A stretch of 52,334 nucleotides of DNA from Micromonosporaceae bacterium (GCA_009380105.1 WHSM01000001.1:1-52334); one strand, 5' to 3'; shown: positions 5,485 to 52,334, counted from the stretch's first letter. Made by a program: numbers and translations. The notes: generated by a model from the letters alone, not told the origin.

Positions 5485-5487
5485 TCG

Positions 5488-6261: not shown

Positions 6262-7091
6262 CCGTGGCTGACATGAACACGATCTACCGCAAACCGCTCT
6301 CCATGCTGGACGACCTGGGCGATCAGCTCTCCTTCTACAGCCGGTCGCTGGCGTGGACCCCGCGCACCATCCGCCGCTACAAGCGTGAGGTCCTCCGCCT
6401 GCTCGCCGAGGTGAGCTTCGGCACCGGCGCGCTCGCGGTGATCGGCGGCACCATCGGCGTGATCGTCTTCATCACCTTCTTCACCGGCACCGAGGTGGGC
6501 CTGCAGGGCTACCAGGCGCTGCAGCAGATCGGTTCCAGCGCGTTCACCGGGTTCGTGTCGGCGTACTTCAACACCCGCGAGATCTCCCCGCTGGTGGCGG
6601 GCCTGGCGCTGTCGGCGACAGTCGGCGCCGGCTTCACCGCGCAGCTCGGCGCGATGCGGATCAACGAGGAGGTGGACGCGCTGGAGGTCATGGGCCTGCC
6701 GTCGCTGCCCTTCCTGGTGACCACCCGCATGATCGCCGGGTTCGTCGCGGTGATCCCGCTGTACGTGATCGCGCTGCTCTCCAGCTACGCCGCGACCCGC
6801 ATGATCGCCACCAGCTACTTCGACCAGTCGACCGGCACGTACGACTACTACTTCACCCTGTTCCTGCCGCCGGAAGACGTGTTGTGGTCGTTCTTCAAGG
6901 TGCTGGTGTTCAGTGTTTTGGTGATCCTGATCCACTGCTACTACGGTTACACCGCGTCCGGCGGTCCGGCGGGGGTCGGGATGGCCGTCGGCCGCGCGGT
7001 GCGGCTGGCGATCGTCGCGATCAATATTGTTGACTTCTTCCTCAGTCTCGCGATCTGGGGCACCACGACGACAGTCCGGATCGTGGGGTAG
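6258..7091 (+). CDS. yrbEB: Mce-system permease, YrbE/MlaE family (B subunit)
   Basis: 277 aa. REISPLVAGLALSATVGAGFTAQLGAMRINEEVDALEVMG motif. The start overlaps the previous stop (TTG 6258; GTG 6264 or ATG 6273 also possible). Confidence 0.85.
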   Translation: MTVADMNTIYRKPLSMLDDLGDQLSFYSRSLAWTPRTIRRYKREVLRLLAEVSFGTGALAVIGGTIGVIVFITFFTGTEVGLQGYQALQQIGSSAFTGFVSAYFNTREISPLVAGLALSATVGAGFTAQLGAMRINEEVDALEVMGLPSLPFLVTTRMIAGFVAVIPLYVIALLSSYAATRMIATSYFDQSTGTYDYYFTLFLPPEDVLWSFFKVLVFSVLVILIHCYYGYTASGGPAGVGMAVGRAVRLAIVAINIVDFFLSLAIWGTTTTVRIVG

Positions 7092-7099
7092 GGGCGACT

Positions 7100-9199: not shown

Positions 9200-10446
9200 T
9201 GGCGGCCACAGGCAGCGGCGTGGTCGCCGGATTCGCGCGCAGCAAGCTGGCGGTCGGTCTGGCGATCGCGGTGGCGTTGGTGCTCGCAGCCGTGGCAGCG
9301 GTCTTCCTGCTCGACCTGCGGGCCGGCGGCCGTACGGTCACGGCGCACTTCACCCGCACCGTCGGCATCTACCCCGGCTCCGACGTGCGCATACTCGGCG
9401 TCAAGGTGGGGGAGATCGAGGAGGTCGTCCCGCGGGGGAAGACCGTGCGCGTCACGATGAACTACTCCACCGAGTACCAGGTCCCGGTGGACGTCAAGGC
9501 CATCGTCGTGCCGCCCAGCCTGGTCTCCGACCGGTACATCCAGCTCGCGCCTGTGTACAAGGGCGGCCGCGAGCTGGCGAACCACGCGACGCTCTCGAAG
9601 AGCCGCACCGTGGTCCCGCTCGAGCTGGACGAGGTGTACTCGTCGCTGGACGAGCTCGGCCGGGCGCTCGGCCCCGAGGGCGCCAACTCCACCGGTGAGC
9701 TCTCCCGGCTGCTCAAGACCGAACGGAAGAACCTGGAAGGCAACGGCGAGCAGCTCGGCAAGACCCTGTCCGACTTCTCCAAGGCGCTGGACACGCTCGC
9801 CAGCGGCCGCAAGGATCTGTTCGGCTCCATCAGCAACCTGCAGAAGTTCACCAAGGTGCTGGCGGACAGCGACAAGGAAGTGCGCCGCTTCAACAGCAAA
9901 CTCGCCTCCGTCTCCAAGCAGCTCTCGGCGGAGCGGGACGAGTTGTCCGGGGCCCTGCGCAGCCTCGCCAAGGCGCTGGGGCACGTGACGAAGTTCGTGC
10001 GGGACAACCGCAAGGAGCTGGTCAAGAACGTCGACCTGCTCACTGACGTCACGTCCTCGCTGGTCAAGCAGCAGTCGGCGCTGATCGACGTGCTGGACTT
10101 CGCTCCTGTGGGCGCGTCGAACCTGGCGCTGTCGTACAACCCGCGCTCCGGCACCATCGACGCCAGGGACACCCTGATGGGGCCGTACGATCCCGCGTCG
10201 TTCGTGTGCTCGCTGATGGTGCACGTGCTGCCGACCGACGACATCCCGCAGGCCTGCTTCGACCTGGCGCAGCGCCTGCACGACGGTGGCGCGCAGCTCA
10301 CGCCCGAGCTGGGCAAGCTGCTCGGGCTGTCGGTGCCGACCCCCGGCCCGAAGGGCGGCTCCGACAAGAAGAAGGGCCCGCTCCCCAGCGGGGAGTCGCA
10401 GTCGAGCGATCCGACGTTCGGCGGCATTCTGGGAGGCTCACGATGA
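9196..10446 (+). CDS. MCE-family substrate-binding protein 3
   Basis: TM helix plus VTAHFTRTVGIYPGSDVRILGVKVGEIEEV...PSLVSDRYIQLAP. GTG 9196 or ATG 9199 overlaps the upstream stop. Confidence 0.85.
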   Translation: MMAATGSGVVAGFARSKLAVGLAIAVALVLAAVAAVFLLDLRAGGRTVTAHFTRTVGIYPGSDVRILGVKVGEIEEVVPRGKTVRVTMNYSTEYQVPVDVKAIVVPPSLVSDRYIQLAPVYKGGRELANHATLSKSRTVVPLELDEVYSSLDELGRALGPEGANSTGELSRLLKTERKNLEGNGEQLGKTLSDFSKALDTLASGRKDLFGSISNLQKFTKVLADSDKEVRRFNSKLASVSKQLSAERDELSGALRSLAKALGHVTKFVRDNRKELVKNVDLLTDVTSSLVKQQSALIDVLDFAPVGASNLALSYNPRSGTIDARDTLMGPYDPASFVCSLMVHVLPTDDIPQACFDLAQRLHDGGAQLTPELGKLLGLSVPTPGPKGGSDKKKGPLPSGESQSSDPTFGGILGGSR

Positions 10447-11702
10447 TCTCGAGATTGCGTGGACTCCACCGACTCCGCAAGACGTGCGTCGCCTTCCTCG
10501 CGGCCGTCATGGCGTTGACGTTCGGCCTGGCCGGCTGCTCGAAGGACGGCGGCTCGGCGATCCCGCTGCCCGGCGGAGCGCCTCGCGGCGACTACTTCAC
10601 GATCACGGCCGAGTTCGACGATGTCCTCGACCTGGTGCCTGAGGCGTCGGTGAAGGTGAACGACGTCTCGGTCGGCAGCGTGGAGCGGATCTGGCTGCGC
10701 GGCTGGAAGGCGCGGGTCGCGCTGCGGATCGACAAGTCCGTCACGTTGCCGGACAACGCGATCGCGGCGCTGCGGCAGACCAGCCTGCTGGGCGAGAAGT
10801 TCGTCGCCCTGGACCCGCCGGAGCGCGGCAAGTCGTACGGGCGGCTCAGCGACGGCGATCTGATCCCGCTTGCTCGCACCAGGCGGAGCACCGACATCGA
10901 AGAGGTGTTCTCGGCGATGGCGATGCTGCTCAACGGCGGCGGACTGGCCGAGCTGCGGACCATCAACCGGGAGATCGGCAAGGCGCTCCACGGGCGCGAA
11001 GCCGATGTGAAGAAGACCTTGAAGGAGCTCAACCGCTTCGTCGGCGGCCTGGACGACCAGAAGAAGGACATCGTCCGCGCCATCGACGCGATGGACAAGC
11101 TGTCGGCGCGACTCGCCAAGGACCGCGGCAAGGTGGCCAAGGCGCTGGACTCGTTGGGCCCCGGTCTCAAGACGCTCGCGCAGCAGCGCAAGGATCTGGT
11201 GGCGATGCTCACCTCGTTGAAGAAGCTCGGCAAGGTGGGCACGAAGGTGATCAGGGCGAGCCGGGACGACACCGTGTCGGTGCTGCGCGACCTGCAGCCG
11301 GTGCTGACGGAGCTGGTGAAGGCCGGCGACGAGGTGCCGAAGCGCCTCTATTACCTGCTCACGTTCCCGGTCCCGCCGGAGGCGTTGAAGGCGATCCACC
11401 CGGACAAGACCGATCCGCGTCAACAGTTCGTGAACCTGAGCATTACGCTCGACCTCGACGCCAAGGTCATCCTGCACAACCTGACCTGCAATCCGGAGCC
11501 GGCGCCGGATGAGCCTGGCAGCCCTCCGCCGAGCGACCCTGACGACCGGTCCTCGGACCAGCCGTGTATAGGCGGTCACGAGCCAGAGTCGCCGGTGAAG
11601 CCTGGCGCGCCGGTGGCTCCGAGGGTTCCGGGCCTGCCGGGCGAGGCAGATGGCCAGCGGGGCGGTCTGGCCGACCTCCTCATAGGGGGCCTGACACGTT
11701 GA
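10443..11702 (+). CDS. MCE-family lipoprotein (MceE/Lpr-like), 4th and last MCE protein
   Basis: MISRLRGLHRLRKTCVAFLAAVMALTFGLAGCS carries a lipobox (LAGC). MlaD signature FTITAEFDDVLDLVPEASVKVNDVSVGSVERI...TSLLGEKFVALDPP. ATGA overlap with the upstream gene. The longer ORF start at 10206 is rejected. Confidence 0.8.
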   Translation: MISRLRGLHRLRKTCVAFLAAVMALTFGLAGCSKDGGSAIPLPGGAPRGDYFTITAEFDDVLDLVPEASVKVNDVSVGSVERIWLRGWKARVALRIDKSVTLPDNAIAALRQTSLLGEKFVALDPPERGKSYGRLSDGDLIPLARTRRSTDIEEVFSAMAMLLNGGGLAELRTINREIGKALHGREADVKKTLKELNRFVGGLDDQKKDIVRAIDAMDKLSARLAKDRGKVAKALDSLGPGLKTLAQQRKDLVAMLTSLKKLGKVGTKVIRASRDDTVSVLRDLQPVLTELVKAGDEVPKRLYYLLTFPVPPEALKAIHPDKTDPRQQFVNLSITLDLDAKVILHNLTCNPEPAPDEPGSPPPSDPDDRSSDQPCIGGHEPESPVKPGAPVAPRVPGLPGEADGQRGGLADLLIGGLTR

Positions 11703-11855
11703 TCCCGCGTCGTGCCCTGCGGCCCCGCCTGACGGTGGCTGCGGACGCGACGTGTGCTGTGTCCGGGTGACCCGGTTCTGACGGCGGGTGCCGTGTGTCG
11801 ACGCAGCGTGTGTTGAATGGGAGTGCATGATGACGGAAAGTAGCGAGGAGAGGAG

Positions 11856-12515
11856 GTGCAGCGCGTGATGGCGACTCGGCTGCCCCGCTCCGGCGGGTCC
11901 GGTCGCGGGGCCCGTTCCGGCGGCCCCGCTCGGCCCGCCCGTGCCGCTGGCTCGCGCAGCTCCGGCCGCAGACCTGAATCGGCCCGCGCCAGGCTGCCCA
12001 AGAAGCCGGATCCGTTCCGGCGTGAGCGCACGACATGGCTCGCCGTCAGCGTGGTGCTGACCCTGTTGCTCCTCGCCTCCATGGGCTTCGCCGGCTGGTG
12101 GGGCTACGACTGGTACGAGCAGCGGCAGGTCCGCGAGAGCCACAAGACCGCGGTCGCGGCCGCCCGCCAGACAGTGGTCGACTTCTTCTCGATCAGCGGC
12201 GACAGCGTCGACCGGGACGTGGAGCAGGTGATCCAGGGCGCGACCGGCACGTTCAAGGAAGAGTACGAGGCCGGCAGGGCGGAGCTGCGCACCGCTGTGA
12301 AAGAGAACAAGGTGAAGTCCGAGGGCAAGGTGCTGCGTGCTGGCCTGGTCAGCGGTGACAGCGACTCGGCGACGGTGCTGGTCGCGGCTGACGCCAACGT
12401 CAGGAACGCGAACTCGCCCAAGGGGCGCAAGGTGCATTACCGGGTTCAGGTCGAGATGTCGTACGACAAGAAGAGCGAACGCTGGTTGGTCGCCGACCTG
12501 AAGTTCGTCGGATAG
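11856..12515 (+). CDS. Mce-associated membrane protein (Mas-like)
   Basis: Arg-rich N-terminus, one TM helix (WLAVSVVLTLLLLASMGFAGWWGY), then a C-terminal domain typical of Mas proteins encoded downstream of mce operons. Start is GTG 11856 or ATG 11868. Confidence 0.7.
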   Translation: MQRVMATRLPRSGGSGRGARSGGPARPARAAGSRSSGRRPESARARLPKKPDPFRRERTTWLAVSVVLTLLLLASMGFAGWWGYDWYEQRQVRESHKTAVAAARQTVVDFFSISGDSVDRDVEQVIQGATGTFKEEYEAGRAELRTAVKENKVKSEGKVLRAGLVSGDSDSATVLVAADANVRNANSPKGRKVHYRVQVEMSYDKKSERWLVADLKFVG

Positions 12516-12535
12516 CGCGGGAGTTCACCAAGACG

Positions 12536-13717
12536 ATGGCGAGATATGTGCCCAGGGCGCTGCGTGGTCGCTCCGCGGACGGCCCGGAACCCACGGAGGA
12601 GTTCGCAGCCCGGCGACGGGAGGCGGAGAACGCCGCGGAGTCCGCGTCCGAGCCGGTGTCCGGCTCCAGCGCTGACGACGGCGACGCGACGGGGAACGAC
12701 GACGCGACGGCGAACGACGACGAGGCGACACCGAAAGACGGCGACGCGACGGCGAAGAACGGCGACCGCGCCGCCGCCCGGCGGCGGCGTCCGCAGCCGC
12801 GAGCGGCTGCGTCCGACTCCGCGCCGGCCGCTGATGACGCTGACGGCGCAGCGGAGGACGTTGACCCGGCTGAGGGGCAGGACGTCCCCGAGCGCGACGC
12901 GGAGCGTGCCCCCGAGCCCGACGAGCCAGACGCGGACGTCGAGCCCGAGGCAGACGACAAGCTGGACGCGGAGGACGAGGACGTCGAGCCCGAGGCGGAC
13001 GACGAGCCCGAGGACGAGGACGCCGAGCGCGAGAAGCCCAGATCGGGACGGATCGGCGCAGCCGCGGGGCGCGCCAAGCGCGGCCGGTCCACGTCCGACG
13101 ACGCGGCGGGCAGGACCTCGGGCGCGCGCGGCCCGGCAGGTCGCAAGGTGGCGGCGCCGCGCGCCCGCATGAGCCGCCGGGCTCGGGAAGCCGAGGCGGC
13201 GGTCGCGCGGTTGCGCCGCACCGCGGCCGCCATCGGCGTCTGGGCGCTGATCTTCGCGCTGCTGGCCGGCGGAGCGTACTACCTCAAGAGCAGCGCGGAG
13301 GCCACTGCCCGGGCGGACAGGGAGGCGACGGCGGCGGCCGCCGCTGCCGCCGAGGCGATCTTCTCGTACGACTACCGCTCATTCGACGACAGCGTGGCCA
13401 ACGGCCTGGCCTTCACGACCGGGGATTTCAAGAAGGAGTACCGCAAGACGACCGGGAGCCTGAAGGCCACTGCTGTGAAGGAGAAGGCCGTGGTGCGCGC
13501 CAACGTGAAGTTGATGAGCGTGGCTGACCGGCCGGCCGACTGCGGGGAGGACGCGGCGGAGTGCGTCGAGGTGCTCCTGTACGTCAACCAGTTCCGGACC
13601 AACGCGAACATCAAGGGTGAGAAGGTGGATCAGAACCGGGTGGTCCTGACCATGGTCCGGATCCGCGACGAGAAGACCGGCCACGACTGGTTGGTCCGGG
13701 ACGCGCTGGCGATCTGA
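12536..13717 (+). CDS. Mce-associated membrane protein (Mas-like) with ~230-aa acidic low-complexity N-terminus
   Basis: TM helix AAIGVWALIFALLAGGAYYL, then AIFSYDYRSFDDSVANGLAFTTGDFKKEYRKT..., a Mas-type domain paralogous to 11856-12515. The N-terminus is Asp/Glu/Ala-rich with repeats. Confidence 0.7.
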   Translation: MARYVPRALRGRSADGPEPTEEFAARRREAENAAESASEPVSGSSADDGDATGNDDATANDDEATPKDGDATAKNGDRAAARRRRPQPRAAASDSAPAADDADGAAEDVDPAEGQDVPERDAERAPEPDEPDADVEPEADDKLDAEDEDVEPEADDEPEDEDAEREKPRSGRIGAAAGRAKRGRSTSDDAAGRTSGARGPAGRKVAAPRARMSRRAREAEAAVARLRRTAAAIGVWALIFALLAGGAYYLKSSAEATARADREATAAAAAAAEAIFSYDYRSFDDSVANGLAFTTGDFKKEYRKTTGSLKATAVKEKAVVRANVKLMSVADRPADCGEDAAECVEVLLYVNQFRTNANIKGEKVDQNRVVLTMVRIRDEKTGHDWLVRDALAI

Positions 13718-28696: not shown

Positions 28697-29890
<1,194 letters not shown>

Positions 29891-29899
29891 CGCGCTGCC

Positions 29900-29938
29900 G
29901 GTGGCTCTGGCTGGTCACACCGGCCGGCCGGAGCCACC
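29900..29938 (+). terminator. Hairpin (probable terminator) after tuf
   Basis: ~15-bp stem (29900-29914 pairs with 29924-29938, two G.U pairs, 9-nt loop) starting 10 nt after the stop. No U-tract. Confidence 0.5.
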
Positions 29939-29989
29939 ACAGCGGGTCGTCGCGCGTCGCCTCCGGGCGGCCGGGTGGCGGTCCGGTAC

Positions 29990-30062
29990 CCCGATTTCGT
30001 GATGTCGTTGCAGTACGGCATAATGAATTGGTTGCGTCTGCGAGGCTGATCGAGATTGCTCT
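29990..30062 (+). promoter_or_regulatory. AT-rich island with candidate S10-operon promoter(s)
   Basis: Locally AT-rich. Contains CATAAT (30019-30024), and TTGGTT (30028-30033) with an 18-nt spacer to GAGATT (30052-30057). No single unambiguous -35/-10 pair. Confidence 0.3.
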
Positions 30063-30289
30063 GAGCATGTCGATTGCCCCGCTCAGCGAGTGGCCCTGAT
30101 TGCGCGCCGCGCAAAGAGGGTGACTCGGACCCCAGCCCGTGTGGCTGGGCGGTCCGCACTGGCGGCCAAGGTCCCGACTCGGATACCCGGGGCGGAGCCT
30201 GGCTTTCATGCGAATGTCGCGAGGCACACCGCGAGACAGCGGCGTGCCACCCGAGCCGGAAGGTGCGGGAGCGGATTCGGCCGTCAGGC

Positions 30290-30316
30290 GCGACACGCCC
30301 GACCGCGGGGGCCGGA
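30290..30316 (+). promoter_or_regulatory. Leader element shared with the rpsL leader (copy B)
   Basis: GCGACACGCCCGACCGCGGGGGcCGGA. A 9-bp hairpin follows (30330-30338 pairs with 30343-30351, GGAGCGTG-AAGA-CACGCTCC core). 81 nt lie between the element and the rpsJ ATG. Confidence 0.4.
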
Positions 30317-30397
30317 CACAACGGGCGCGGGGAGCGTGAAGACACGCTCCCGGCGACCGACCAGCAGCGGCACGAGAAGAAGGAAACCGAAGCCACC

Positions 30398-30706
30398 ATG
30401 GCGGGACAGAAGATCCGCATCCGGCTCAAGGCCTATGACCACGAGGTCGTTGACTCCTCGGCGCGGAAGATCGTCGAGACCGTGACGCGTACCGGTGCAC
30501 AGGTCGCTGGCCCGGTGCCGCTGCCCACGGAGATCAACCGTTTCTGCGTCATCCGTTCGCCGCACAAGTACAAGGACTCGCGCGAGCACTTCGAGATGCG
30601 TACGCACAAGCGTCTGATCGACATCCTCGATCCCACGCCGAAGACGGTCGACTCGCTGATGCGGCTCGACCTGCCGGCCGGTGTCGACATCGAGATCAAG
30701 CTGTAG
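30398..30706 (+). CDS. rpsJ: 30S ribosomal protein uS10
   Basis: 102 aa. [28 protein letters not shown]...[14 protein letters not shown]. The upstream in-frame extension from 30074 is rejected. Confidence 0.96.
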
Positions 30707-30719
30707 GGACTCCGAGACG

Positions 30720-31385
30720 ATGGATAGGCAAGTCAAAGGCATTCTGGGCGCCAAGCTCGGCATGACGCAGATCTGGGACGAGAACAACCACGTCGTCCCG
30801 GTGACTGTGGTGCAGGCCGGGCCGTGCGTCGTCACCCAGGTGCGCACGGCCGACAAGGACGGCTACTCCGCCGTCCAGCTCGCGTTCGGCGCAATCGACC
30901 CGCGCAAGGCCACCAAGCCGCTGACCGGCCACTTCGAGAAGGCCGGCACAGCGCCGCGCCGCCACGTCGTGGAGCTGCGCACGACCGACGCGAGCGAGTA
31001 CGAGTTGGGCTCCGAGGTCACGGCGGAGGCCTTCGAGTCCGGTCAGCTGGTGGACGTCACCGGCAGGACCAAGGGCAAGGGCTTCGCGGGTGTGATGAAG
31101 CGGCACGGCTTCCACGGTCTGCGCGCCTCGCACGGTGTCGAGCGCAAGCACCGCTCTCCGGGCTCCATCGGCGGCTGCGCGACCCCGGGCCGGGTGTTCC
31201 GCGGCCAGAAGATGGCTGGTCGGATGGGCGGCGTGCGTCACACAGTGCAGAGCCTGACCGTGCACGCGGTGGACACCGAGAACAACCTGCTGCTGATCAA
31301 GGGCGCCGTGCCTGGCCCCAAGGGCGGGCTGGTGCTGGTGCGCACTGCGGCGAAGGCTCCAGCCGGCAAGGGCGGTGCGGCATGA
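30720..31385 (+). CDS. rplC: 50S ribosomal protein uL3
   Basis: 221 aa from ATG 30720. [33 protein letters not shown]...[10 protein letters not shown]. Confidence 0.95.
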
Positions 31386-32563
31386 CAGGGACAGCGACCG
31401 AGGCGCTGGCGCCGGTGCGGGTCGACGTGGTGGACGCCGAGGGCGAGCCTGCCGGCACGGTCTCCGTGCCGGGCGAGATCTTCGACGCCCAGGCGAACAT
31501 CCCGTTGATGCACCAGGTGGTGGTGGCCCAGCTGGCCGCCGCACGCCAGGGCACCCACAAGACCAAGACCCGCGGCGAGGTCGCCGGCGGCGGCAAGAAG
31601 CCGTACCGCCAGAAGGGCACCGGCCGCGCCCGTCAGGGCTCGATCCGCGCGCCGCAGTTCGCCGGCGGCGGCGTGGTCCACGGCCCTGTGCCGCGCGACC
31701 ACAGCAAGAAGGTGCCGAAGAAGATGAAGGCGGCCGCCCTGCGCGGCGCCCTCTCCGACCGGGCGCGCGACGGCAGGATCCACGTGGTCTCCGCGTTGGT
31801 CGACGGTGAGACCCCGTCGACGAAGCAGGCCATCGCGGCGCTCACGGCCCTCGTGGAGACCCGGCGCGCGCTGGTGGTGCTGGACCGCGAGGACGAGCTC
31901 AACTGGAAGAGCCTCCGCAACGTGCCGACGGTGCACCTGATCACCGCGGACCAACTGAACACGTACGACGTGCTCGTCAACGACGACCTCGTGTTCACCA
32001 CGGCGGGGCTGCGGGCCTTCCTCGGTGCCGAGCTGGAGATCACTGAGGCCAAGCCGAAGAAGAAGGCCGTCGCCAAGAAGGCCGGGAAGGCGGACGAGGC
32101 CAAGAAGGCTGACAAGGCTGACAAGGCCAAGGACAAGGCCGAGAAGGCCACGTCGGACAAGGCTCAGAAGGCAGCGCCCAAGAAGGTCGAGAAGGCGGCG
32201 CCGAAGAAGGCCGAGAAGGCGGTGCCGAAGAAGGCCGCCAAGGCGGACTCCGAGGCGCCTGCTGACGAGGCCAAGCCGGCCAAGAAGGCCGCCGCGAAGA
32301 AGAGCGGCGCCAAGAAGGCCGCGGCGAAGGTCGAGGCGGAGCTCGGGCCGTACTCGGGATCTGTGATCCCGCCGCCGGACGGCTCCGTGCCTGACGGTTA
32401 CCCGATCAAGGGCAACGAGCAGTCGGGGCTCTACCACGAGCCGGGCAGCCGTCACTACAAGCAGACCAAGGCCGAGTTCTACTTCGCCACGGTCGATGAC
32501 GCCAAGGCGGCCGGCTTCAACGCGCCTGGCGCCAAGGACGACGGCGAGGAGGGTGAGAAATGA
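31382..32563 (+). CDS. rplD: 50S ribosomal protein uL4 with ~175-aa C-terminal extension (Lys/Ala-rich linker plus terminal module)
   Basis: ATGA overlap with rplC. uL4 core includes [25 protein letters not shown] and ends near residue 215. The frame continues to residue 393. The rplW ATG overlaps the stop. Confidence 0.9.
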
Positions 32564-32868
32564 GTGCCGTGAGCCTGACGGACCCCCGCGACATCGTCTT
32601 CCAGCCGGTGGTCTCGGAGAAGAGCTACGGCCTGCTGGACCAGAACAAGTACACGTTTCTGGTGCATCCGGACGCGAACAAGACCCAGATCAAGATTGCT
32701 ATCCAGCAGATCTTCGAGGTCCGGGTGCTGAAAGTGAACACCGCCAACCGCGAGGGCAAGCGTCGCCGTACCCGGCACGGCTGGGGAAAGCGCAAGGACA
32801 CCAAGCGGGCGATCGTGACGCTCGCCGAGGGCGACCGCATTGAAGCCTTCGGCGGACCGGTGAGCTGA
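32560..32868 (+). CDS. rplW: 50S ribosomal protein uL23
   Basis: 102 aa. [46 protein letters not shown]. Confidence 0.95.
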
Positions 32869-32885
32869 GGCGGGAGTAGAGGACA

Positions 32886-33725
<840 letters not shown>

Positions 33726-33743
33726 GTGGGGAGATAGCGTCAA

Positions 33744-34025
33744 ATGCCTCGCAGCCTGAAGAAAGGCCCATTCGTCGACGACCACCTCGTCAAGAAGGTG
33801 GATATGCAGAACGAAAAGGGCACTAAGAACGTGATCAAGACCTGGTCGCGGCGGTCCACGATCATCCCGGACATGATCGGCCAAACGATCGCCGTGCACG
33901 ACGGGCGCAAGCACGTGCCGGTCTTCGTCACCGACGCGATGGTCGGGCACAAGCTCGGCGAGTTCGCCCCGACCAGGACATTTCGGGGCCACGAGAAAGA
34001 CGACCGTAAGAGCCGCCGGCGCTGA
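33744..34025 (+). CDS. rpsS: 30S ribosomal protein uS19
   Basis: 93 aa. [15 protein letters not shown]...[33 protein letters not shown]. Confidence 0.97.
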
Positions 34026-34115
34026 TCGCGCCGAACGGCTCGGCGGTCGCCCTCCGGGGCGGCCGGGGACCGCAACGCGACGTACGTACGGATAGAAAGA
34101 GCAAGGGGACTCCCG

Positions 34116-34628
34116 ATGCCAACTACGGGTGGCGCGCCAACGCTACCGGGCGCCAGAGCGGTGGCGCGCTTCGTGCGCGTAACGCCGATGAAGGCGCGCC
34201 GTGTGGTCAACCTCATCCGCGGGCTTCCCGCGCAGGAGGCGCTGACGGTGCTGCAGTTCGCGCCCCAGGCCGCGAGCGAGCCGGTCTACAAGGTGCTCGC
34301 CAGCGCGATGGCCAACGCGGAGAACAACGAGTCGCTGGACCCGGACTCGCTCCTGGTCAGCGAGGCGTACGTCGACGAGGGGCCGACGTTCAAGCGGTTC
34401 CGGCCGCGGGCCCAGGGTCGGGCGTACCGGATCCGTAAGCGGACCAGCCACATCACGGTCGTGGTGGAGAGCGTCCAGGCGGCGGCTCCGGCGCGGAAGG
34501 CGGCCAAGGCGGCGAAGGCGGCCAAGGCCGCGAGCAAGCCGAAGGCCGCCGAGGTGAGCAAGGCGTCCTCGGCGACGGCTGAGGAGACGACCGCGGCCGA
34601 GAGCACCACGAAGGAGAGTGCCGAGTAA
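34116..34628 (+). CDS. rplV: 50S ribosomal protein uL22 (Lys/Ala-rich C-terminal tail)
   Basis: 170 aa. [24 protein letters not shown]...[30 protein letters not shown], then [18 protein letters not shown]... Confidence 0.94.
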
Positions 34629-35482
34629 TGGGTCAGAAAGTTCACCCACACGGCTTCAGGCTCGGCATCAGCGCCGATTGGAAGTCCCGCTGGTACGCCG
34701 ACAAGCTGTACAAGGACTACGTCGCCGAGGACGTCAAGATCCGCAAGATGATGTCCCACGGCCTGGAGCGCGCGGGCATCTCCAAGGTGGACATCGAGCG
34801 CACCCGCGACCGGGTGCGGGTCGACATCCACACCGCGCGGCCTGGCATCGTGATCGGCCGCAAGGGCGCCGAGGCGGACCGCATCCGCGGGCAGCTCGAG
34901 AAGCTCACCGGCAAGCAGATCCAGCTGAACATCCTCGAGGTGAAGAACCCCGAGTCGGACGCGCAGCTGGTCGCCCAGGGCATCGCCGAGCAGCTCGCCA
35001 GCCGGGTCAACTTCCGGCGGGCCATGCGTAAGGCGATCCAGTCGGCGATGAAGAACCCGCTGGTCAAGGGCATCCGGGCGCAGTGCTCCGGGCGACTGGG
35101 CGGCGCCGAGATGTCCCGCTCGGAGTTCTACCGCGAGGGTCGTGTGCCGCTGCACACGCTGCGGGCGAACATCGACTACGGCTTCTTCGAGGCGCGCACC
35201 ACCTTCGGCCGGATCGGCGTGAAGGTGTGGATCTACAAGGGTGAAGTGATCCCGGGCCGGGAGCAGCCGGCCGTCGAGACCGAGCGGCGGCCTCGCCGTG
35301 AGCGGCCGCGTCGTGGGCGTTCCGGCGCCGCCGGCACCACGGCGGGCGGCACCGACGCCGGACGCGCCGCGGCGGCCGAGCGGACGGGCAGGAGCCCCAA
35401 GGGCGCTGCTCCGGAGACCGCCGAGCCGACCCCAGAAGCCAGCGCCGCCGAGACTGCTCCGGCCGCGACGACGGAGGGCTAA
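34628..35482 (+). CDS. rpsC: 30S ribosomal protein uS3 (Arg/Ala/Glu-rich C-terminal tail)
   Basis: 284 aa. [14 protein letters not shown]...KH domain...[31 protein letters not shown]. Confidence 0.95.
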
Positions 35483-35486
35483 GCAG

Positions 35487-35912
35487 ATGTTGATGCCACG
35501 TAAGCCCCCGAAGGGCTTCCGCAAGCCTCACTCGCCGAAGCGGCGCGGTCAGGCCAAAGGCGGTGTGCGCGTGACCTTTGGTGAGTACGGGATTCAGGCT
35601 CTCGAGCACTCGTACGTCACCAACCGGCAGATCGAGGCCGCACGTATCGCCATGACCCGGCACATCAAGCGTGGCGGCAAGGTGTGGATCACGATCTTCC
35701 CGGATCAGGCGCTGACCAAGAAGCCCGCCGAGACCCGGATGGGTTCCGGCAAGGGCACCCCGGAGTGGTGGGTGGCGAACGTCAAGCCCGGACGCGTGAT
35801 GTTCGAGCTGTCCTACCCCAGCGAGACGACCGCCCGCGAGGCGCTGACTCGCGCGATCCACAAGCTCCCTATGAAGTGCCGCATTGTCAAGCGTGAAGTG
35901 GGTGAAGCCTGA
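35487..35912 (+). CDS. rplP: 50S ribosomal protein uL16
   Basis: 141 aa from ATG 35487. [15 protein letters not shown]...[25 protein letters not shown]. The longer ORF from 35298 lies inside rpsC and is rejected. Confidence 0.94.
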
Positions 35913-36142
35913 TGGCAGCGGGCACAACCGCCACTGAGCTGCGGGAACTCACTGAGGATGAGCTGGCTACCCGGCTGAAGGAAGCCAAGGCGGAGCTGTT
36001 CAACCTCAGGGTTCAGGCGGCGACCGGGCAGATGGACAACAACCGGCGGCTGCAGGTGGTGCGCCGGGAGATCGCCCGGATTTACACGATCATGCGCGAG
36101 CGTGAGCTTGGGCTCTCTGCCGCGCCGAGTGAGGTTGCCTAA
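35912..36142 (+). CDS. rpmC: 50S ribosomal protein uL29
   Basis: 76 aa. [49 protein letters not shown]. The ATG overlaps the rplP stop. Confidence 0.94.
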
Positions 36143-36417
36143 TGACCGAGCAGACACAGACGCAGCCGCGTGGCCGCCGCAAGGTGCGGGAGGGCTACGT
36201 GACCAGCGACAAGATGGAGAAGACCGTCGTGGTCGAGGTCGAGGACCGCGTCAAGCACTCGCTGTACGGCAAGGTCATGCGCCGTACCAGAAAGTTGAAG
36301 GCGCATGACGAGAGCAACCAGTGCGGCACCGGCGACCGCGTGCTCCTGATGGAGACGCGGCCACTGTCGGCCACCAAGCGCTGGCGGGTCGTCGAGATCC
36401 TCGAGAAGGCCAAGTAA
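36142..36417 (+). CDS. rpsQ: 30S ribosomal protein uS17
   Basis: 91 aa. [45 protein letters not shown]. The ATG overlaps the rpmC stop. Confidence 0.95.
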
Positions 36418-36496
36418 CCCAGAAAAGGTCGAGTAACCCACTAGTTCCGCCAGGCTCAGCCGCAGGCTGAGAACCGGCAGACACACAGGAGTTGAC

Positions 36497-36868
36497 GTGA
36501 TCCAGCAGGAGTCGCGACTGCGCGTCGCCGACAACACGGGTGCGAGGGAGATCCTCTGCATCCGGGTGCTCGGCGGCTCGGGTCGGCGCTACGCGAGCAT
36601 TGGCGACGTCATCGTGGCCACTGTCAAAGACGCCATCCCCGGCGCGGGCGTGAAGAAGGGCGACGTCGTCCGGGCGGTCGTGGTGCGCGTCGCCAAGGAG
36701 CGGCGGCGTCCGGATGGCTCGTACATCCGGTTCGACGAGAACGCGGCCGTGATCCTCCGGGAGGGCAGCGGAGAGCCTCGCGGCACCCGCATCTTCGGCC
36801 CGGTGGGCCGGGAGCTCCGGGACAAGCGCTTCATGAAGATCATCTCGCTGGCCCCGGAGGTGCTGTAG
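36497..36868 (+). CDS. rplN: 50S ribosomal protein uL14
   Basis: [46 protein letters not shown]... GTG start, 79 nt after rpsQ (S10/spc operon boundary). Confidence 0.96.
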
Positions 36869-39507: not shown

Positions 39508-40116
39508 ATGGCAGGTCCGCAGCGCCGTGGCGGGTCCGGCGGCTCCGAAGGGGGTCGTCGCGATCGCCGTGATGGCGGCCGCGGCGGCGCGGCCGCGGAG
39601 AAGACGCCACACCTCGAGCGCGTCGTCACAATCAATCGCGTCGCCAAGGTAGTCAAGGGCGGCCGCCGGTTCAGCTTCACCGCGCTGGTCGTGGTGGGCG
39701 ACGGCGAAGGCACCGTGGGAGTCGGCTACGGCAAGGCCAAGGAGGTGCCCGCGGCGATCGCCAAGGGCGTCGAAGAGGCCAAGAAGCACTTCTTCAAGGT
39801 GCCGCGCATCGCCTCGACGATCACCCACCCGGTGATCGGCGAGGACGCGGCCGGCGTGGTGCTCCTCAAGCCGGCCAGCCCCGGTACCGGTGTGATCGCC
39901 GGTGGTCCGGTGCGCGCCGTGCTGGAGTGCGCCGGCATCCACGACGTGCTCTCCAAGAGCCTCGGCTCCTCCAACCCGATCAACATCGTGCACGCCACTG
40001 TGGCGGCGCTGAAGTCCCTCGAGACGCCGGAGCAGGTGGCGGTGCGCCGCGGTCTGCCGGTGGAGGACGTCGCGCCGGCCGCCATGCTCCGGGCGCGCGC
40101 AGAGGCGGGGGCATGA
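39508..40116 (+). CDS. rpsE: 30S ribosomal protein uS5 (Gly/Arg-rich N-terminal extension)
   Basis: 202 aa. [48 protein letters not shown]. Confidence 0.95.
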
Positions 40117-43949: not shown

Positions 43950-44534
43950 ATGGAGCAACGACCGGACCTGAGGGCCAGCGACCAGGATCGCCAGAAGATC
44001 GCCGACCAGTTGAAGGACGCCGTGAGCGAGGGGCGCATCGACCTGTCGGAGTACGACGAGCGGCTCGCGTCGGCCTACGCTGCCAAGACGTACGGGGAGT
44101 TGGCCCAGGTCACCGCTGACCTGCCCCTGCCCGAGAAGCAGGCGGTCGCCCCCCGGCAAGGGGCGCCGATGGCGACCCAGCAGCAGATCGCGGAGGCCGA
44201 GAAGGCGGCGTTCGCGCGGCGCGCGCGGATCAGCCGCCGGCTGTGGCGCATGTGGCGGCCGTGGGCTGCGGCGTCAGCCGTCACCACCGGGGTGTGGCTG
44301 GCCATCCTCATCGCCAACGGCGGCGAGGTCACGTTCTTCTGGCCGGTGTTCGTGATCGTGCCGTGGGGGCTCATGCTCGCGGTGAAGAGCTTCGGCGTAG
44401 TCGGCAGCGGAGAGCGCTACGAGTGGGAAGGCGTCGAGGGGCGCGGGCCGGCAGGCCACCAGGTCGCAGACCGCCACGCGTCCGCCGAGCACTGGCGCAG
44501 CGCGCGGCGGGGGCGGCGCGGCGGGTGCTGCTGA
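43950..44534 (+). CDS. DUF1707-domain membrane protein
   Basis: N-terminal LRASDQDRQKIADQLKDAVSEGRIDLSEYDERLASAYAAKTYGELAQVTADLP is the classic DUF1707 motif. Two C-terminal TM helices. Confidence 0.7.
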   Translation: MEQRPDLRASDQDRQKIADQLKDAVSEGRIDLSEYDERLASAYAAKTYGELAQVTADLPLPEKQAVAPRQGAPMATQQQIAEAEKAAFARRARISRRLWRMWRPWAAASAVTTGVWLAILIANGGEVTFFWPVFVIVPWGLMLAVKSFGVVGSGERYEWEGVEGRGPAGHQVADRHASAEHWRSARRGRRGGCC

Positions 44535-48065: not shown

Positions 48066-48806
48066 ATGCCCCAGCCCACCAAGGGAGCCCGTCTCGGCGG
48101 CAGCCCTGCACACCAGCGGTTGATGCTGGCGAACCTCGCCACGTCGCTGTTCCGGCACGGCAAGATCCGGACGACCGAGACCAAGGCGAAGCGGCTGCGG
48201 CCCTTCGCGGAGCGTCTGGTCACCTTCGGCAAGCGCGGCGACCTCAACTCCCGTCGCCGGGCGATCGCCGTGCTCCGGGACAAGGAAGTCGTGCACCAGC
48301 TCTTCGAGGAGATCGCGCGCAGGTACGCCAACCGGCCAGGCGGCTACACCCGTACCACCAAGATCGGTCCGCGTAAGGGCGACAACGCTCCGATGGCCGT
48401 GATCGAGCTGGTCGAGGAGTTGGCCGTCGCCGAGCCGGAGGCGAAGCGCGCCGCGCGCAAGGCGGCGAAGGCCGACGCGGTGGCCGCGCTCGCGGGCGAG
48501 ACCGACGAGGCTGACGAGGCCGCGGCCCCGGAGGCCAAGGCCCCCGAGACCGACCTGGTCGGCGCGGACGAGGAGCCGCCGTACGGCGAGGGCAGCCACG
48601 CCCCGCTGGAGGACGACTCCCAGCCGGAAGGTTTCCCGATCAAGGGGAACGAGGACTCAAAGCTCTACCACACCACGGACAGCCCGTCCTACAAGCGGAC
48701 GGTCGCCGAGGTGTGGTTCGCGACCGAGGAGGCCGCGGAGGCCGCTGGCTTCCAGAAGCCGCCGTCGCAGCGGGACAAGGACGACTCCGAGGATTCCGCG
48801 GAGTAA
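48066..48806 (+). CDS. rplQ: 50S ribosomal protein bL17 with ~130-aa C-terminal extension (acidic linker plus the same terminal module as uL4)
   Basis: bL17 core [46 protein letters not shown]...MAVIELV ends near residue 116. The frame continues to residue 246. Confidence 0.92.
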
Positions 48807-48815
48807 TCGCCTCCG

Positions 48816-49664
48816 TTGAATGAACCACTTGCACCCGAGCCCGCCAGAGAGCACTCTGGCGGGCTCGTGCGTGTCCGGCTGGATGTGTCGTACGACGGGA
48901 CCGAGTTCTCCGGTTGGGCGGCGCAGCCCGACCAGCGCACCGTGGCGGGGGTGCTGCTCGAAGCGCTGACCAGGCTGTTCGGGAGGCCTGGCGGGCTCAC
49001 GGTGGCGGGACGCACTGACGCTGGCGTGCACGCCACCGGCCAGGTGTGTCATGTGGACGTGCCGGCCGACGCGTGGGCGAGGTCTGCCGGCACCGTGATC
49101 CGGCGACTGGCGGGTCTGCTGCCGCCGGACGTGCGGGTGGTCGCGGCGGCTGAGGCCCCGCCCGACTTCGACGCGCGCTTCTCGGCGATCCGCCGCCGGT
49201 ACGAGTACCGCGTCGTCGACGAGCCGTGGGGTGCGCCGCCGTTGCGTCGTCGCGACACGCTCGCGTGGCCGTGGCGGCTGGACGTGCATCGGCTGAACGC
49301 GGCCGCGGCGGGCCTGATCGGCGAGCATGACTTCGCGGCGTACTGCCGGCGAAAGGAGCACGGCACGACGATCCGCACCCTGCTGCGGTTGGACTGGCGG
49401 CGGGATCCGGACGGCGCCGTGGTGGCGAGTGTGGAGGCGGACGCGTTCTGCCAGGCGATGGTGCGCAGTCTGGTCGGCGCGTTGCTGCCGGTCGGGGATG
49501 GTCGTCGTCCCGTGGAGTGGCCGGCGTCGCTGCTGTCGCGGCGGGAGCGCGCCAGCGAGGTGGGGGTGGCGCCGCCGCACGGGCTGAACCTGGTGGGCGT
49601 GGACTACCCGGACGCAGAGGGGTACGCCGCCCAGGCCGGCCGGGCCCGCACCCTCCGATCTTGA
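48816..49664 (+). CDS. truA: tRNA pseudouridine(38-40) synthase
   Basis: 282 aa. VRLDVSYDGTEFSGWAAQPDQRTV...VAGRTDAGVHATGQV (catalytic Asp). TTG start; a later start is possible. Confidence 0.9.
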   Translation: MNEPLAPEPAREHSGGLVRVRLDVSYDGTEFSGWAAQPDQRTVAGVLLEALTRLFGRPGGLTVAGRTDAGVHATGQVCHVDVPADAWARSAGTVIRRLAGLLPPDVRVVAAAEAPPDFDARFSAIRRRYEYRVVDEPWGAPPLRRRDTLAWPWRLDVHRLNAAAAGLIGEHDFAAYCRRKEHGTTIRTLLRLDWRRDPDGAVVASVEADAFCQAMVRSLVGALLPVGDGRRPVEWPASLLSRRERASEVGVAPPHGLNLVGVDYPDAEGYAAQAGRARTLRS

Positions 49665-49732
49665 CTGACCGATCAGTTTCCGGCGTCCTGGGGTCTAACC
49701 TTCCGTAGGGCTATCGGTGAAGGGAGATCGCG

Positions 49733-50345
49733 ATGAAGTTGACGGTGACCACGTTCCTGTCGGTCGACGGGGTGATGCAGGGGCCGGGCGGTCCGGACGA
49801 GGACCGCGGCGATGGGTTCACGCGGGGCGGCTGGGTGGTCCCGCACTTCGACGAGGACGCCGGCCGGTTCATGAACGAGGTGTTCGACCAGGTCGACGCG
49901 TTCCTGCTCGGCCGGCACACGTACGACATTTTCGCCGCGTCCTGGCCGAACGCGACGGACCCGGACGACCCGATCGCGAGCCGGCTCAACACGCTGCCCA
50001 AATGTCGCTTCGACCACGCTGACCGCGCCCGAGTGGGGCCCCACGACGGTGCTCACCGGCGACGTGCCCGCCGCGGTGGCCGACCTCAAGCGGCAGCCGG
50101 GGCGGGAGTTGCAGGTGCACGGCAGCGGCGCGCTGGTGCGCACCCTGCACGAGCACGACCTGGTCGACGAGTACCGGCTGCTGGTCTTCCCGGTCGTCGT
50201 CGGGGAGGGCCGCCGCCTGTTCCCCGACCGGGGCGTGGCCACCGGGCTCACCCTGGCAGACACGCGCACCACCGGCTCAGGCGTGGCCATCCAGGTGTAC
50301 CGGCCGACCGGCCGGCCCGAGTTCGGCACGATCGAGGTCACCTAG
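49733..50345 (+). pseudogene. RibD_C / dihydrofolate-reductase-family gene interrupted by a frameshift near 50012
   Basis: N-terminal half [24 protein letters not shown]...ASRLNTLPK is in the frame of 49733. The C-terminal half ([16 protein letters not shown])[29 protein letters not shown]...[10 protein letters not shown] is in the frame of 50013/50049. The junction reads aaa-t-gtc. Confidence 0.7.
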
Positions 50346-50675
50346 CTCGCTCAGCGGAGTTTGAGGGCCAGCTCGACTAGTGCTCCCGCCTCACGGGCGC
50401 TCTCCCGATGTCCCGCGCTGCCGCTCTGATCCGCGCCACGGCTTCCAGCATCTGCCGCTCCAGATCAGGCGGCCGGCTCGGCAGTGTCCCCCTGTCCCGG
50501 CGCTCCAGGGAGGCGAAGCGCGGAACGGCCTGCCGAGCCGGCCTGTGGGAGTGACTCTCACTCCCGTCATCACCCGGTACCGAGGACATGACTCCAGGTT
50601 GCGGCATCGGCCTGGCGTGCGGAAGAATCTCGTGCACTCCGCACGCTGCGCGGTGACAAGAGACTGGGGGGCATT

Positions 50676-51545
50676 GTGAGAAGAGGCAGGACCATCCAGG
50701 CGCGGGAGTTGGGCCGGCAGCTGCGGAACCGGCGCCAGGAAGCGGGGATGAGCGTGGACCACGCCGCTGCCGAGCTGTCGCTGTCGGTGCCCACGATCTA
50801 CCGGTACGAGACGGGGACGACGGTGCCGAGGCCACCCGACGTGAAGGGGCTCTGCGAGGCGTACGGCGCTGATGAGGACATGACGCGAGCGCTCGTCGCC
50901 TTGGCGCGGGAAGCCGACGCGCCCGGATGGTGGCGAAGCTACGACGGGGCGATCCCGCGATGGTTCGACACGTTCGTCTCCCTGGAGAGCGGGGCCAACC
51001 ACATTCGGGCGTACGACTCTGAACGGGTGCTCGGGTTGCTTCAGACCAGGGCGTACGCGGAGGCGATGATCCGTGCCCTGGTGCCCCCGGAGGTCGACCA
51101 CGAGGGGGTGTCCAAGCGGGTTGAGGTGCGGATGCAGCGGCAGCGCATCCTGGAGCGCCGCAACCCGCCGCAGTTGGACGTGATCCTCGGCGAGGCCACA
51201 CTGGTTCGGTCTCCCGGTGACGAGATCATGGCCGAGCAACTGTCGCATCTGGACAAGGTCTCGCGACGTCCGAATATCACGCTGCGAGTCCTGCCCCTGA
51301 ACTTGATCCATCGTGGCTTGGGGTGCGGCGCCAACTTCATGATGTTGGACTTCCCGACCGACAGGCGCGACCTCGGTGAGCCTCCAATGGTGTACGCGGA
51401 GAACCTCACGGGCGCGGTCTACCTAGACAAGCCGGGGGAGATCCGGGCGTACAGCCGGGTCTGGGAGAGCCTTGTGCGAGATGGGTCGTCCACAGCCGAG
51501 TCCCGTACGATCATCAATACTTACAGGGAGAGGTACGAGCAGTGA
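50676..51545 (+). CDS. XRE-family HTH regulator with DUF5753-like C-terminal domain (WhiJ/Scr1-like)
   Basis: 289 aa. LGRQLRNRRQEAGMSVDHAAAELSLSVPTIYRYETG is the HTH; WWRSYDGAIPRWFDTFVSLESGANHIRAYDSERVLGLLQT is typical of the family. GTG start. Confidence 0.8.
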   Translation: MRRGRTIQARELGRQLRNRRQEAGMSVDHAAAELSLSVPTIYRYETGTTVPRPPDVKGLCEAYGADEDMTRALVALAREADAPGWWRSYDGAIPRWFDTFVSLESGANHIRAYDSERVLGLLQTRAYAEAMIRALVPPEVDHEGVSKRVEVRMQRQRILERRNPPQLDVILGEATLVRSPGDEIMAEQLSHLDKVSRRPNITLRVLPLNLIHRGLGCGANFMMLDFPTDRRDLGEPPMVYAENLTGAVYLDKPGEIRAYSRVWESLVRDGSSTAESRTIINTYRERYEQ

Positions 51546-51721
51546 GTGACTTAGTGTGGCGCAAGTCCAGCAGGTCCGGCGGAGAAGGCGCCTGCGTCGA
51601 GGTTGCGGCGCTGCCTGACCGCGTGATGGTGCGTGACTCCAAGGATCCTGACGGAGCGGTGCTGACCTTCCCGCGCGGCGAGTGGCGAGCCTTCGTGGAC
51701 CACCTGCGCGAGGTCCGTTGA
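51542..51721 (+). CDS. DUF397-domain protein
   Basis: 59 aa, below the ORF-track cutoff and read by hand. (M)SDLVWRKSSRSGGEGACVEVAALPDRVMVRDSKDPDGAVLTFPRGEWRAFVDHL. The GTG overlaps the XRE stop (GTGA). Confidence 0.8.
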   Translation: MSDLVWRKSSRSGGEGACVEVAALPDRVMVRDSKDPDGAVLTFPRGEWRAFVDHLREVR

Positions 51722-51940
51722 GAGCGATTCCGCTGCACGCTTGGTAGCCCCTGCGCTGTCTCACAGTGGGTGGGGGTTGCGCGCGTCCGGCGTGCTCTGC
51801 TGCTCGTATGGCCAATGCAAACCGCTATCCCACCACGGCGGCATTGCGGGTCGCTATCTCACCACGGCGGGGGAAGCGGCATCGGCGATCTGACAGCCGC
51901 GTTGCTCGGACACAGCCACGCTCAGCGCCTCCTGCCAATC

Positions 51941-52334
51941 TCACACGGTGAGCGTGACGTGTGCCAGCCCAGTGCCCGCGATGACCAGCGAGATCCCGCC
52001 ACCCGGTCCGGTCGCCGCCGTGGCGAGCGCGTGCACGGCGCCTGGGACGCTCAGCGGTGGCGCCGTTGAGTTTCCGGTGGTCAGGTCCCAGATTCGGATG
52101 GCGCCGCCGCCGCCGGTGACGGCGACGGGTCTGCCGTCGAGGTGGGCGATCGCCACGGCGTTCACCCAGCCGGTGTGGCCGGTCAGTGGTTGGCGGTGGG
52201 GGCGGCCGGTGCTCAGGTCCCAGATTCGGATGGCGCCGCCGCCGTCGCCGGTGACGGCGACGGGTCTGCCGTCGAGGTGGGCGATCGCCACCGCCCGCAC
52301 CAAGCCCTCGTGGCCGGTCAGCGTTTCGCTGGCG
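51941..52334 (-). CDS. WD40-repeat protein, C-terminal part only (5' end lies beyond the window)
   Basis: Minus-strand frame is open to the window edge. Repeats LTGH(E/T)G(L/W)V(R/N)AVAIAHLDGRPVAVTG(D)GGGAIRIWDL(S/T)TG. Stop codon at 51941-51943. Confidence 0.8.
   Translation of the reverse strand, partial: ASETLTGHEGLVRAVAIAHLDGRPVAVTGDGGGAIRIWDLSTGRPHRQPLTGHTGWVNAVAIAHLDGRPVAVTGGGGAIRIWDLTTGNSTAPPLSVPGAVHALATAATGPGGGISLVIAGTGLAHVTLTV
52081..52334 (-). repeat. Near-identical tandem WD40-coding DNA repeats (~129-132 nt unit)
   Basis: 52081-52156 and 52213-52291 are identical apart from one extra codion-length insertion of 3 nt (gtc) and one base substitution. The rest of each unit differs only at a few clustered codons. 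Confidence 0.85.

Follow-up and report, generated by a model that had tools for sequence, protein, structure and literature searches.

Ribosomal protein uL4 with an added C-terminal domain is already known, both from curated NCBIfam and Pfam families and from a published ribosome structure, and curated models also exist for the corresponding architecture of bL17. In NCBIfam the domain is modelled as NF051437 ("sunset"), and full-length models describe the sunset domain variants of 50S ribosomal proteins L4 (NF051449) and L17 (NF051448), with sister sunset-variant models for bL20, uS2 and ArfC. The Pfam family PF27542, with the family name ArfC, covers the same module as NF051437. The ArfC proteins after which it is named (Rv0901-type, from the ompATb/arfABC operon) carry the same module at their C-terminus, but differ from the ribosomal proteins described below in being membrane-anchored and non-ribosomal, often with several modules in tandem. 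According to a 2025 review the role of rv0900 and rv0901 (ArfB, ArfC) "remains elusive", and thus no function can be transferred from ArfC to the ribosomal modules. [quoted passage not shown] A profile of the module matches chain e of PDB 8CRX and five related entries, with the sunset module at residues 241-289 of the 301-aa C. acnes uL4 (E 2.4e-18). The extension of this protein is solvent-exposed and without EM density (Nucleic Acids Res 2023, PMC10085706), and in the same paper it is treated as merely disordered, no domain being recognised. Literature searches of the available library on the sunset domain, on its accessions and on Lys/Ala-rich extensions of actinobacterial ribosomal proteins returned nothing relevant.

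The window, a stretch of 52,334 nucleotides from a Micromonosporaceae bacterium (GCA_009380105.1, WHSM01000001.1:1-52334), encodes both a uL4 and a bL17 of this kind. rplD (31382..32563, plus strand; start ATG at 31382, stop TGA at 32561-32563) translates into a protein of 393 aa that scores 417.8 bits with NF051449 (E 2.7e-125, cut-off 385), and is an intact uL4 of the curated sunset-domain variant type. Its core (aa 1-215, 31382..32026) is a bona fide bacterial uL4 at the rplC-rplD-rplW position, matching TIGR03953 (224.5 bits) and Pfam Ribosomal_L4 (PF00573, aa 28-211, E 6e-63); as the latter match ends at aa 211, the whole of the canonical uL4 lies within about the first 215 residues. The core is followed, all on the plus strand, by a linker (aa 216-320, 32027..32341), by the sunset module with a conserved N-terminal arm (aa 321-382, 32342..32527; NF051437 and AF2), and by an acidic C-terminal tip of 11 residues (aa 383-393, 32528..32560; translation and composition). 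The rplC stop is overlapped by the rplD ATG, and the ATG of rplW (32560..32868, plus strand; ATG at 32560-32562) shares the ATGA at 32560-32563 with the rplD stop. GC3 values for core, linker and module are 0.96, 0.93 and 0.88, and that they stay high through the extension supports genuine in-frame coding of the whole of rplD. No promoter-like sites were found in a scan of 29800-36500; five terminator-like matches in the same interval (two inside rplD, minus strand) do not exceed the number expected from shuffled sequence (mean 4.5). The initial annotation had described a 393-codon frame with its core complete by about residue 215, overlapped by rplW at 32560-32563, and had placed the extension inside an intact, translationally coupled operon with no neighbouring gene fused to it. 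The translation, the PF00573 match, the overlaps, the open frame and the homologues with the same architecture bear out each of these points.

The NCBIfam sunset match falls at aa 342-382 (32405-32527, plus strand), with a score of 64.3 bits with NF051437 (cut-off 27). The order of uL4 core, low-complexity linker and C-terminal module is common to the window protein and NF051449/NF051437, and the motif IKGN..S..YH...F....A.AAGF to the window module and the sunset models. The copy of Pfam that was searched holds no PF27542, the label being precomputed on nearly all close homologues. Among the 120 best uL4 homologue clusters, the sunset profile matches the C-terminus of 111 (291-418 aa, median 322), and all but one of these 111 carry the annotation PF27542+PF00573. 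The window uL4, at 393 aa, is longer than this median and than the 285 positions of NF051449, the excess over the model consisting of an unusually long, strongly basic Lys/Ala-rich linker. The module ends 11 residues before the C-terminus of the window uL4, the median distance being 8 residues in the 111 homologues, and acidic tips like aa 383-393 are also seen on uL4 homologues. Profile searching of the tail, which had been put forward as a check on its identity, therefore recovers a catalogued domain above its cut-off. The remark in the initial annotation that IKGN...YH...AGF mini-domains are appended to diverse bacterial proteins was right. The implied novelty of the module does not survive, as curated models (NF051437/PF27542 and the uL4 and bL17 variant models) exist and both window proteins pass.

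Named carriers of the uL4-sunset architecture are Pseudonocardia, Herbihabitans and Jiangellaceae. In a scan of representative genomes, which was biased by its seed patterns and in which the distribution is patchy, the uL4 tail is present in Micromonosporaceae MAGs, Actinophytocola, Herbihabitans and one Amycolatopsis MAG, and no uL4 tail was found in Saccharopolyspora, Rhodococcus or other Amycolatopsis. The nearest uL4s in the genome collection are those of Micromonosporaceae MAGs (69-81% identity), and in the protein collection the best cluster (P0194) shares 71% identity with the window uL4, no identical protein being on record. P0194-P0196 (69-85% identity) have the same order of core, linker, module and acidic tip, which excludes a frameshift or fusion artefact in the window. 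A sequencing frameshift or missed stop that joined a separate small gene to rplD might be suspected from some long-read MAGs, in which the tail is called as a separate ORF of 85-117 aa between rplD and rplW. However, one of these (L050) is split by an erroneous frameshift within the linker repeats, and the sunset frame carries on in +1; another (L052) shows this ORF arrangement as well, alongside irregular gene calls (e.g. a fused L3-L4 ORF), as read from the gene calls. In addition, the window frame is open with GC3 of 0.88-0.93 in the extension, the fused architecture recurs in 111 of the 120 best homologue clusters, and the curated HMM models the full-length form, leaving the artefact next to impossible. 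A tail encoded as an independent gene between rplD and rplW was also considered and rejected, L050, the one locus examined, being a frameshift error. Several small "sunset-only" proteins in the databases are not independent genes.

The second protein is encoded by rplQ (48066..48806, plus strand), a bL17 of 246 aa of the sunset-domain variant type (NF051448, 337 bits, cut-off 280). Within this interval, a core (aa 1-117) is followed by an acidic linker (aa 118-180, net charge -10 by composition) and by a sunset match at aa 192-232 (48639-48761, plus strand; NF051437, 80.6 bits), ending 14 residues before the C-terminus. The uL4 and bL17 tails are 51% identical over 67 residues (BLASTP, E 1e-16), and with the NF051437 match on both, the earlier claim that the same terminal module recurs on bL17 stands, as does its reading as a discrete functional unit. 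A six-frame motif scan finds these two copies and no third in the window. The bL17 module is 72-77% identical to uL4 or uL22 modules of Pseudonocardiales-type organisms, but its identity to the uL4 module encoded in the same genome is only 57%. That uL4 module has 83% identity to the module of the nearest relative and 56-63% to Pseudonocardiales uL4 modules; in this lineage it is thus a diverged subtype, and the uL4 and bL17 modules of the genome are not recent duplicates of each other.

Like the window protein, C. acnes uL4 has a C-terminal extension (~90-100 aa) that ends in sunset, although the protein is shorter (301 versus 393 aa) and so is its linker. The absence of density for the C. 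acnes tail indicates that the module is not rigidly docked on the ribosome, and by analogy agrees with the proposal of the initial annotation that the window tail is tethered on the solvent side. It is no proof that mature ribosomes keep the tail.

The linker of the window uL4 is a low-complexity, Lys/Ala/Glu-rich stretch of 105 residues (33 K+R, 34 A, 18 D+E; net charge +15). It contains three tandem 24-nt units (32171..32242, plus strand) at exactly the coordinates first given for them, which encode octapeptides with the consensus A(A/V)PKK(V/A)(E/A)K, AVPKKAAK among them, at 32171-32194, 32195-32218 and 32219-32242. These units are part of looser arrays of period 24 (32061-32248) and period 48 (32135-32244) detected by Tandem Repeats Finder. 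Lys/Ala/Pro-rich C-terminal tails typify actinobacterial nucleoid proteins (HupB/MDP1-type HU, histone H1-like). The uL4 linker resembles such tails in composition, in its short PKK(A/V) repeats, in its net positive charge and in being predicted disordered, and its tandem repeats are of the PAKK/KAAK type that marks HU/H1-type tails. It differs from them in that, as a spacer, it connects two folded regions of one ribosomal protein, in that it is interspersed with D and E and is thus a polyampholyte, and in that its charge is not kept among orthologous uL4-sunset proteins. Of the 111 uL4-sunset clusters, 38 have a linker of net positive charge and 56 one of net negative charge; linker length, which reaches 133 residues, and linker charge both vary, with the module being kept throughout. 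This lack of conservation argues that binding of DNA or RNA by the linker is not the conserved function. A Lys/Ala tether as a conserved functional element was rejected, as the sign of the charge flips among orthologues and between uL4 and bL17 of this genome. The more general claim that the tether is a nucleic-acid binder likewise could not be upheld, given the acidic homologue linkers, the bL17 linker of -10 and the acidic modules. The basic spacer of the window uL4 could still bind rRNA or another nucleic acid by itself, and the long basic PKK-repeat spacer may be a lineage-specific embellishment, common to P0194-P0196, that confers extra RNA affinity.

An AF2 model based on the window uL4 module and 61 homologous modules has a mean pLDDT of 84.9, with strands at 13-16 (IKGN), 21-23 (LYH) and 37-39 (FYF) and a helix at 42-47. 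The structure prediction that had been suggested for the module thus returns a beta-beta-beta-alpha order, and it is proposed here for the first time that this module of 45-60 residues would fold autonomously as a mini-domain, as confidently predicted by the model. Single-sequence AF2 of the full-length uL4 left the core unfolded as well (mean pLDDT 41.9) and was discarded; the linker had no confident structure in single-sequence AF2.

The Ada N-terminal domain (PF02805; 1ADN, 1EYF, 1U8B, 1WPK, 1ZGW) has the same beta-beta-beta-alpha order, and is the best structural and the best non-self sequence match of sunset in the PDB. Three independent searches, by structure, by profile against the PDB and by Pfam, lead to this domain. 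The best Foldseek match is the N-Ada/DNA complex 1u8b_A (TM 0.54, E 0.9), with 1wpk third, and N-Ada entries are the only PDB profile matches besides C. acnes uL4 (E 0.18-0.43). In the alignment the three sunset strands (IKGN, LYH, FYF) and the helix are set opposite the matching N-Ada segments, and the motifs G-hydrophobic-aromatic-[C/H]-x-P and A-x-A-A-G-F are common to both. Pfam Ada_Zn_binding (PF02805) is matched by 10 of 62 isolated modules (best E 2.3e-6), and by neither window module even at E<=1. As direct matches are weak for canonical modules, the link was examined by transitivity through a Cys-bearing group of relatives (A4), with the pattern "IIGNKNSK.YH.P.C...NRVFF...AE.AGY..A.NC". 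With hhalign, the Cys-free sunset profile (A5) matches this group with 98.2% (E 2.9e-14), and the group matches E. coli N-Ada with 90.4% (E 1.4e-6), compared with 12% (E 2e-3) for A5 directly against Ada. Only the Cys-bearing relatives ("IIGNKNSK.YH.P.C...NC") pass the Pfam gathering cut-off for Ada of 23 bits (26.6-27.9). None of the zinc ligands (Ada C38, C42, C69 and C72) is present in the window uL4 module, which has no Cys, and Cys is absent from 203 of 302 modules; the alignment places a nearly invariant His at C38, frequently Ser at C42, and P/K at C69/C72. In comparison with Ada, sunset therefore lacks the Zn(Cys)4 site and the methyl-acceptor Cys38, and is acidic, C-terminal and not joined to an AraC-type HTH, in contrast to the basic N-terminal domain of Ada. 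Membership in Ada_Zn_binding was ruled out, as zinc ligands, score and charge all fail. A distant kinship, suggested here on the basis of transitive profile matches of moderate strength, is probable, with the module being a zinc-ligand-free relative of the Ada N-terminal metal-binding domain.

This kinship raises the question of whether the module grips a phosphodiester backbone as N-Ada does and, together with the basic spacer, forms an extra RNA/DNA-binding arm of the 50S subunit, for example on rRNA during assembly, on mRNA or on the nucleoid. Ada Cys38 accepts a methyl group from a backbone phosphotriester, and in the sunset motif IKGN..S..YH hardly any variation is seen at K, N, S and H, of which S and H align with Ada T34 and C38. 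Some nuclease-like proteins carry Cys-bearing relatives (SNase in 1 of 100 hosts, and one protein named deoxyribonuclease I), and the window linker, at +15 and with PKK-type repeats, is like HU/H1-type tails. However, the four zinc ligands are all missing, the Ada residues R32, R39, R45, R49, R67, K70 and R71 are mostly unmatched, and the window modules do not have the basic DNA-backbone surface of Ada; the net charge is -2 for the uL4 module and -6 for the bL17 module, with a median of -3 over 302 modules. The linkers are also acidic in half or more of the uL4-sunset proteins and in the window bL17. Backbone binding is thus considered unlikely for the module, and from the sequences analysed here, generic nucleic-acid binding by an acidic module on a linker of lineage-variable charge is doubtful.

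The family extends well beyond the ribosome. An exhaustive HMMER search of representative clusters with a four-sequence profile gave 4,848 sunset clusters (50% identity) at E<=1e-3 and 1,496 at E<=1e-10. Word-indexed searches, which returned 2 matches for the 72-aa tail and short proteins only for the 62-module alignment, were used for names and Pfam labels. The ribosomal hosts are uL4, bL17 and uL22 and, according to NCBIfam, also bL20 and uS2. The commonest carriers among the top matches are N-terminally membrane-anchored, ArfC-like proteins, and these top matches hold 2-5 tandem modules, with one to five predicted cytoplasmic copies on ArfC-type proteins. In most of 152 proteins (P0001-P0152) the last module lies within ~10 residues of the C-terminus, an extreme position that explains the name "sunset", and 89 of the 152 have an N-terminal hydrophobic segment. 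The N-termini that were inspected consist of an uncharged or acidic stub, a hydrophobic helix and then an R/K cluster, and by the positive-inside rule this cluster predicts that the modules are cytoplasmic, which fits with ribosomal proteins being hosts as well. When 100 full-length hosts were scanned with Pfam, Ada_Zn_binding was found in 8, Ribosomal_L22 in 3, BON in 2 and DUF308 in 2, the single SNase case being accompanied by other singletons. OmpA-like or BON-like genes lie upstream of two stand-alone sunset ORFs, which is the arfABC context. Searching phages with the module gave no matches, and searching plasmids gave one only, a Tsukamurella record carrying rplQ; thus nothing points to the module having come from a mobile element.

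Several features of this distribution point towards a tethered handle: the modules are C-terminal and often in tandem, many hosts are membrane proteins, several different ribosomal proteins are hosts, and the module is conserved and the linker is not. The C-terminus of uL4 would lie on the solvent face of the 50S subunit, where the module would not dock on the ribosome itself but would swing on its disordered spacer "like a fishing line" and offer a cytoplasmic partner a handle to dock on. The same partner would also recognise the membrane-anchored ArfC-type proteins that carry sunset copies. The logic is comparable to that of the flexibly tethered termini of stalk proteins, which recruit factors. 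This partner-docking mechanism, the simplest and likeliest of the roles considered, is offered tentatively, at somewhat less than an even chance, and a handle that acts as a generic binder of polyanions or nucleic acids is unlikely. The explanation as a whole, combining the sunset identity, the Ada ancestry and the tethered handle, is given a probability of about 0.55, and the overall reading of the initial annotation, an extra domain tethered to uL4, is sound and its observation accurate, the domain itself being already catalogued.

The same distribution bears on two further explanations. One is a homotypic or multivalent network, in which modules bind each other or a hub and cluster ribosomes with ArfC-type anchors, which would give membrane-proximal translation or storage/hibernation clusters. 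The module is found both on a number of ribosomal proteins of the solvent side and, in 2-5 tandem copies joined by disordered linkers, on membrane anchors, an architecture that appears typical of multivalent scaffolds; however, acidic modules would repel one another unless bridged, and such a network has only a slim chance of being correct. The other is a cis-acting aid to solubility or assembly, in which the tail shields basic, aggregation-prone uL4 and bL17 before their incorporation into the pre-50S and has no role on the mature ribosome. The proteins uL4, bL17, bL20 and uL22 assemble early into the 50S subunit, so that the hosts of the module include early-assembly proteins, and all modules and many linkers are acidic. 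However, the window uL4 linker is strongly basic, and the precisely conserved fold and the majority of the hosts, which are non-ribosomal membrane proteins, would be left unexplained; a purely cis-acting role is thus highly improbable.

For the window alone these results are of little importance, as standard annotation would name the architecture automatically. What remains of interest is the biological role of the module and its zinc-less, probably Ada-derived fold. In many Actinomycetota, with the clinically studied ribosome of C. acnes as one example, ribosomal proteins of the solvent side, several in number, carry this conserved folded domain. Its Ada-like fold without zinc ligands, its acidity and its sharing with ArfC-type proteins reduce the number of plausible explanations and bring the question within reach of experiment. 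As a more speculative extension of the tethered handle, and with the odds well against it, sunset may be a dedicated docking tag that couples ribosomes, through the tails of uL4, bL17, bL20, uL22 and uS2, to ArfC-type membrane proteins or to a common hub. If so, it would represent an unrecognised system by which Actinomycetota position or store ribosomes at the membrane.

The uL22, uS3 and uS5 proteins of the window also carry low-complexity extensions, from which the sunset module (NCBIfam NF051437, Pfam PF27542 "ArfC") is absent. In uL22 (34116-34628, 170 aa), an A/E/T/S-rich tail follows the Pfam core at residues 15-118; uS3 (34628-35482, 284 aa) has an A/E/P/T tail, and uS5 (39508-40116, 202 aa) has a G/R-rich N-terminus. 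A sunset tail on uL22 is found in other genomes, in 3 of the 100 full-length sunset carriers scanned with Pfam.

Two contigs from long-read MAGs have the tail of uL4 annotated as an ORF of its own, labelled PF27542 and 85-117 aa long (loci L050, 4301-5258, and L052, 3763-5354). The separate tail ORF of L050 is the product of a frameshift error inside the GC-rich repetitive linker. Thus, some of the "stand-alone sunset proteins" in databases are pieces of ribosomal proteins. Non-ribosomal sunset ORFs are found at two further loci, L049 (2787-6363) and L051 (3382-5333), where OmpA-like or BON-like genes lie upstream of them. Such a context is consistent with operons of the arfA-arfB-arfC type, though gene calls there are fragmented.

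Several further genes lie in the window. Between rplA and rplJ there is a gene for an S8 subtilase-like protein (837-2675; Peptidase_S8 in Pfam, E 3e-54), and between map and infA one for a DUF1707 (SHOCT-like) protein (43950-44534). The mce-type lipid-transport operon between rplJL and rpoBC (4432-13717) is complete. Its ABC ATPase (4432-5484) is followed by two permeases of the MlaE/YrbE type (5488-7091), by MlaD/Mce4_CUP1 proteins (from 7100) and by two unassigned ORFs (11856-12515 and 12536-13717). At the 3' end, a long minus-strand ORF with repeated, WD40-like "GGGAIRIWDL...TGHTGWV" units (about 49433-52303) overlaps the region of a plus-strand HTH_31/DUF5753 regulator (50676-51545).

A sunset subtype with two cysteines, in the motifs "CP..(Y/H)P(I/V)KGN" and "E(F/V/I)CF", makes up 59 of the 302 modules surveyed (among others in proteins P0012, P0015, P0022, P0025 and P0047), and its carriers include polytopic membrane proteins. 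The cysteines stand where the canonical module has its otherwise conserved Pro and Trp, and could form a disulfide or a metal site. A further set of proteins (P0132, P0185-P0190, P0192 and P0193) shares the motif "IIGNKNSK.YH.P.C..Y....NRVFF....AE.AGY..A.NC" and matches both PF27542 and Ada_Zn_binding (PF02805), the N-terminal metal-binding domain of Ada. One source labels members of this group as methylphosphotriester methyltransferase or deoxyribonuclease I. At the Ada ligand positions, His and two Cys are retained. This group is probably the evolutionary bridge that links Ada and sunset.
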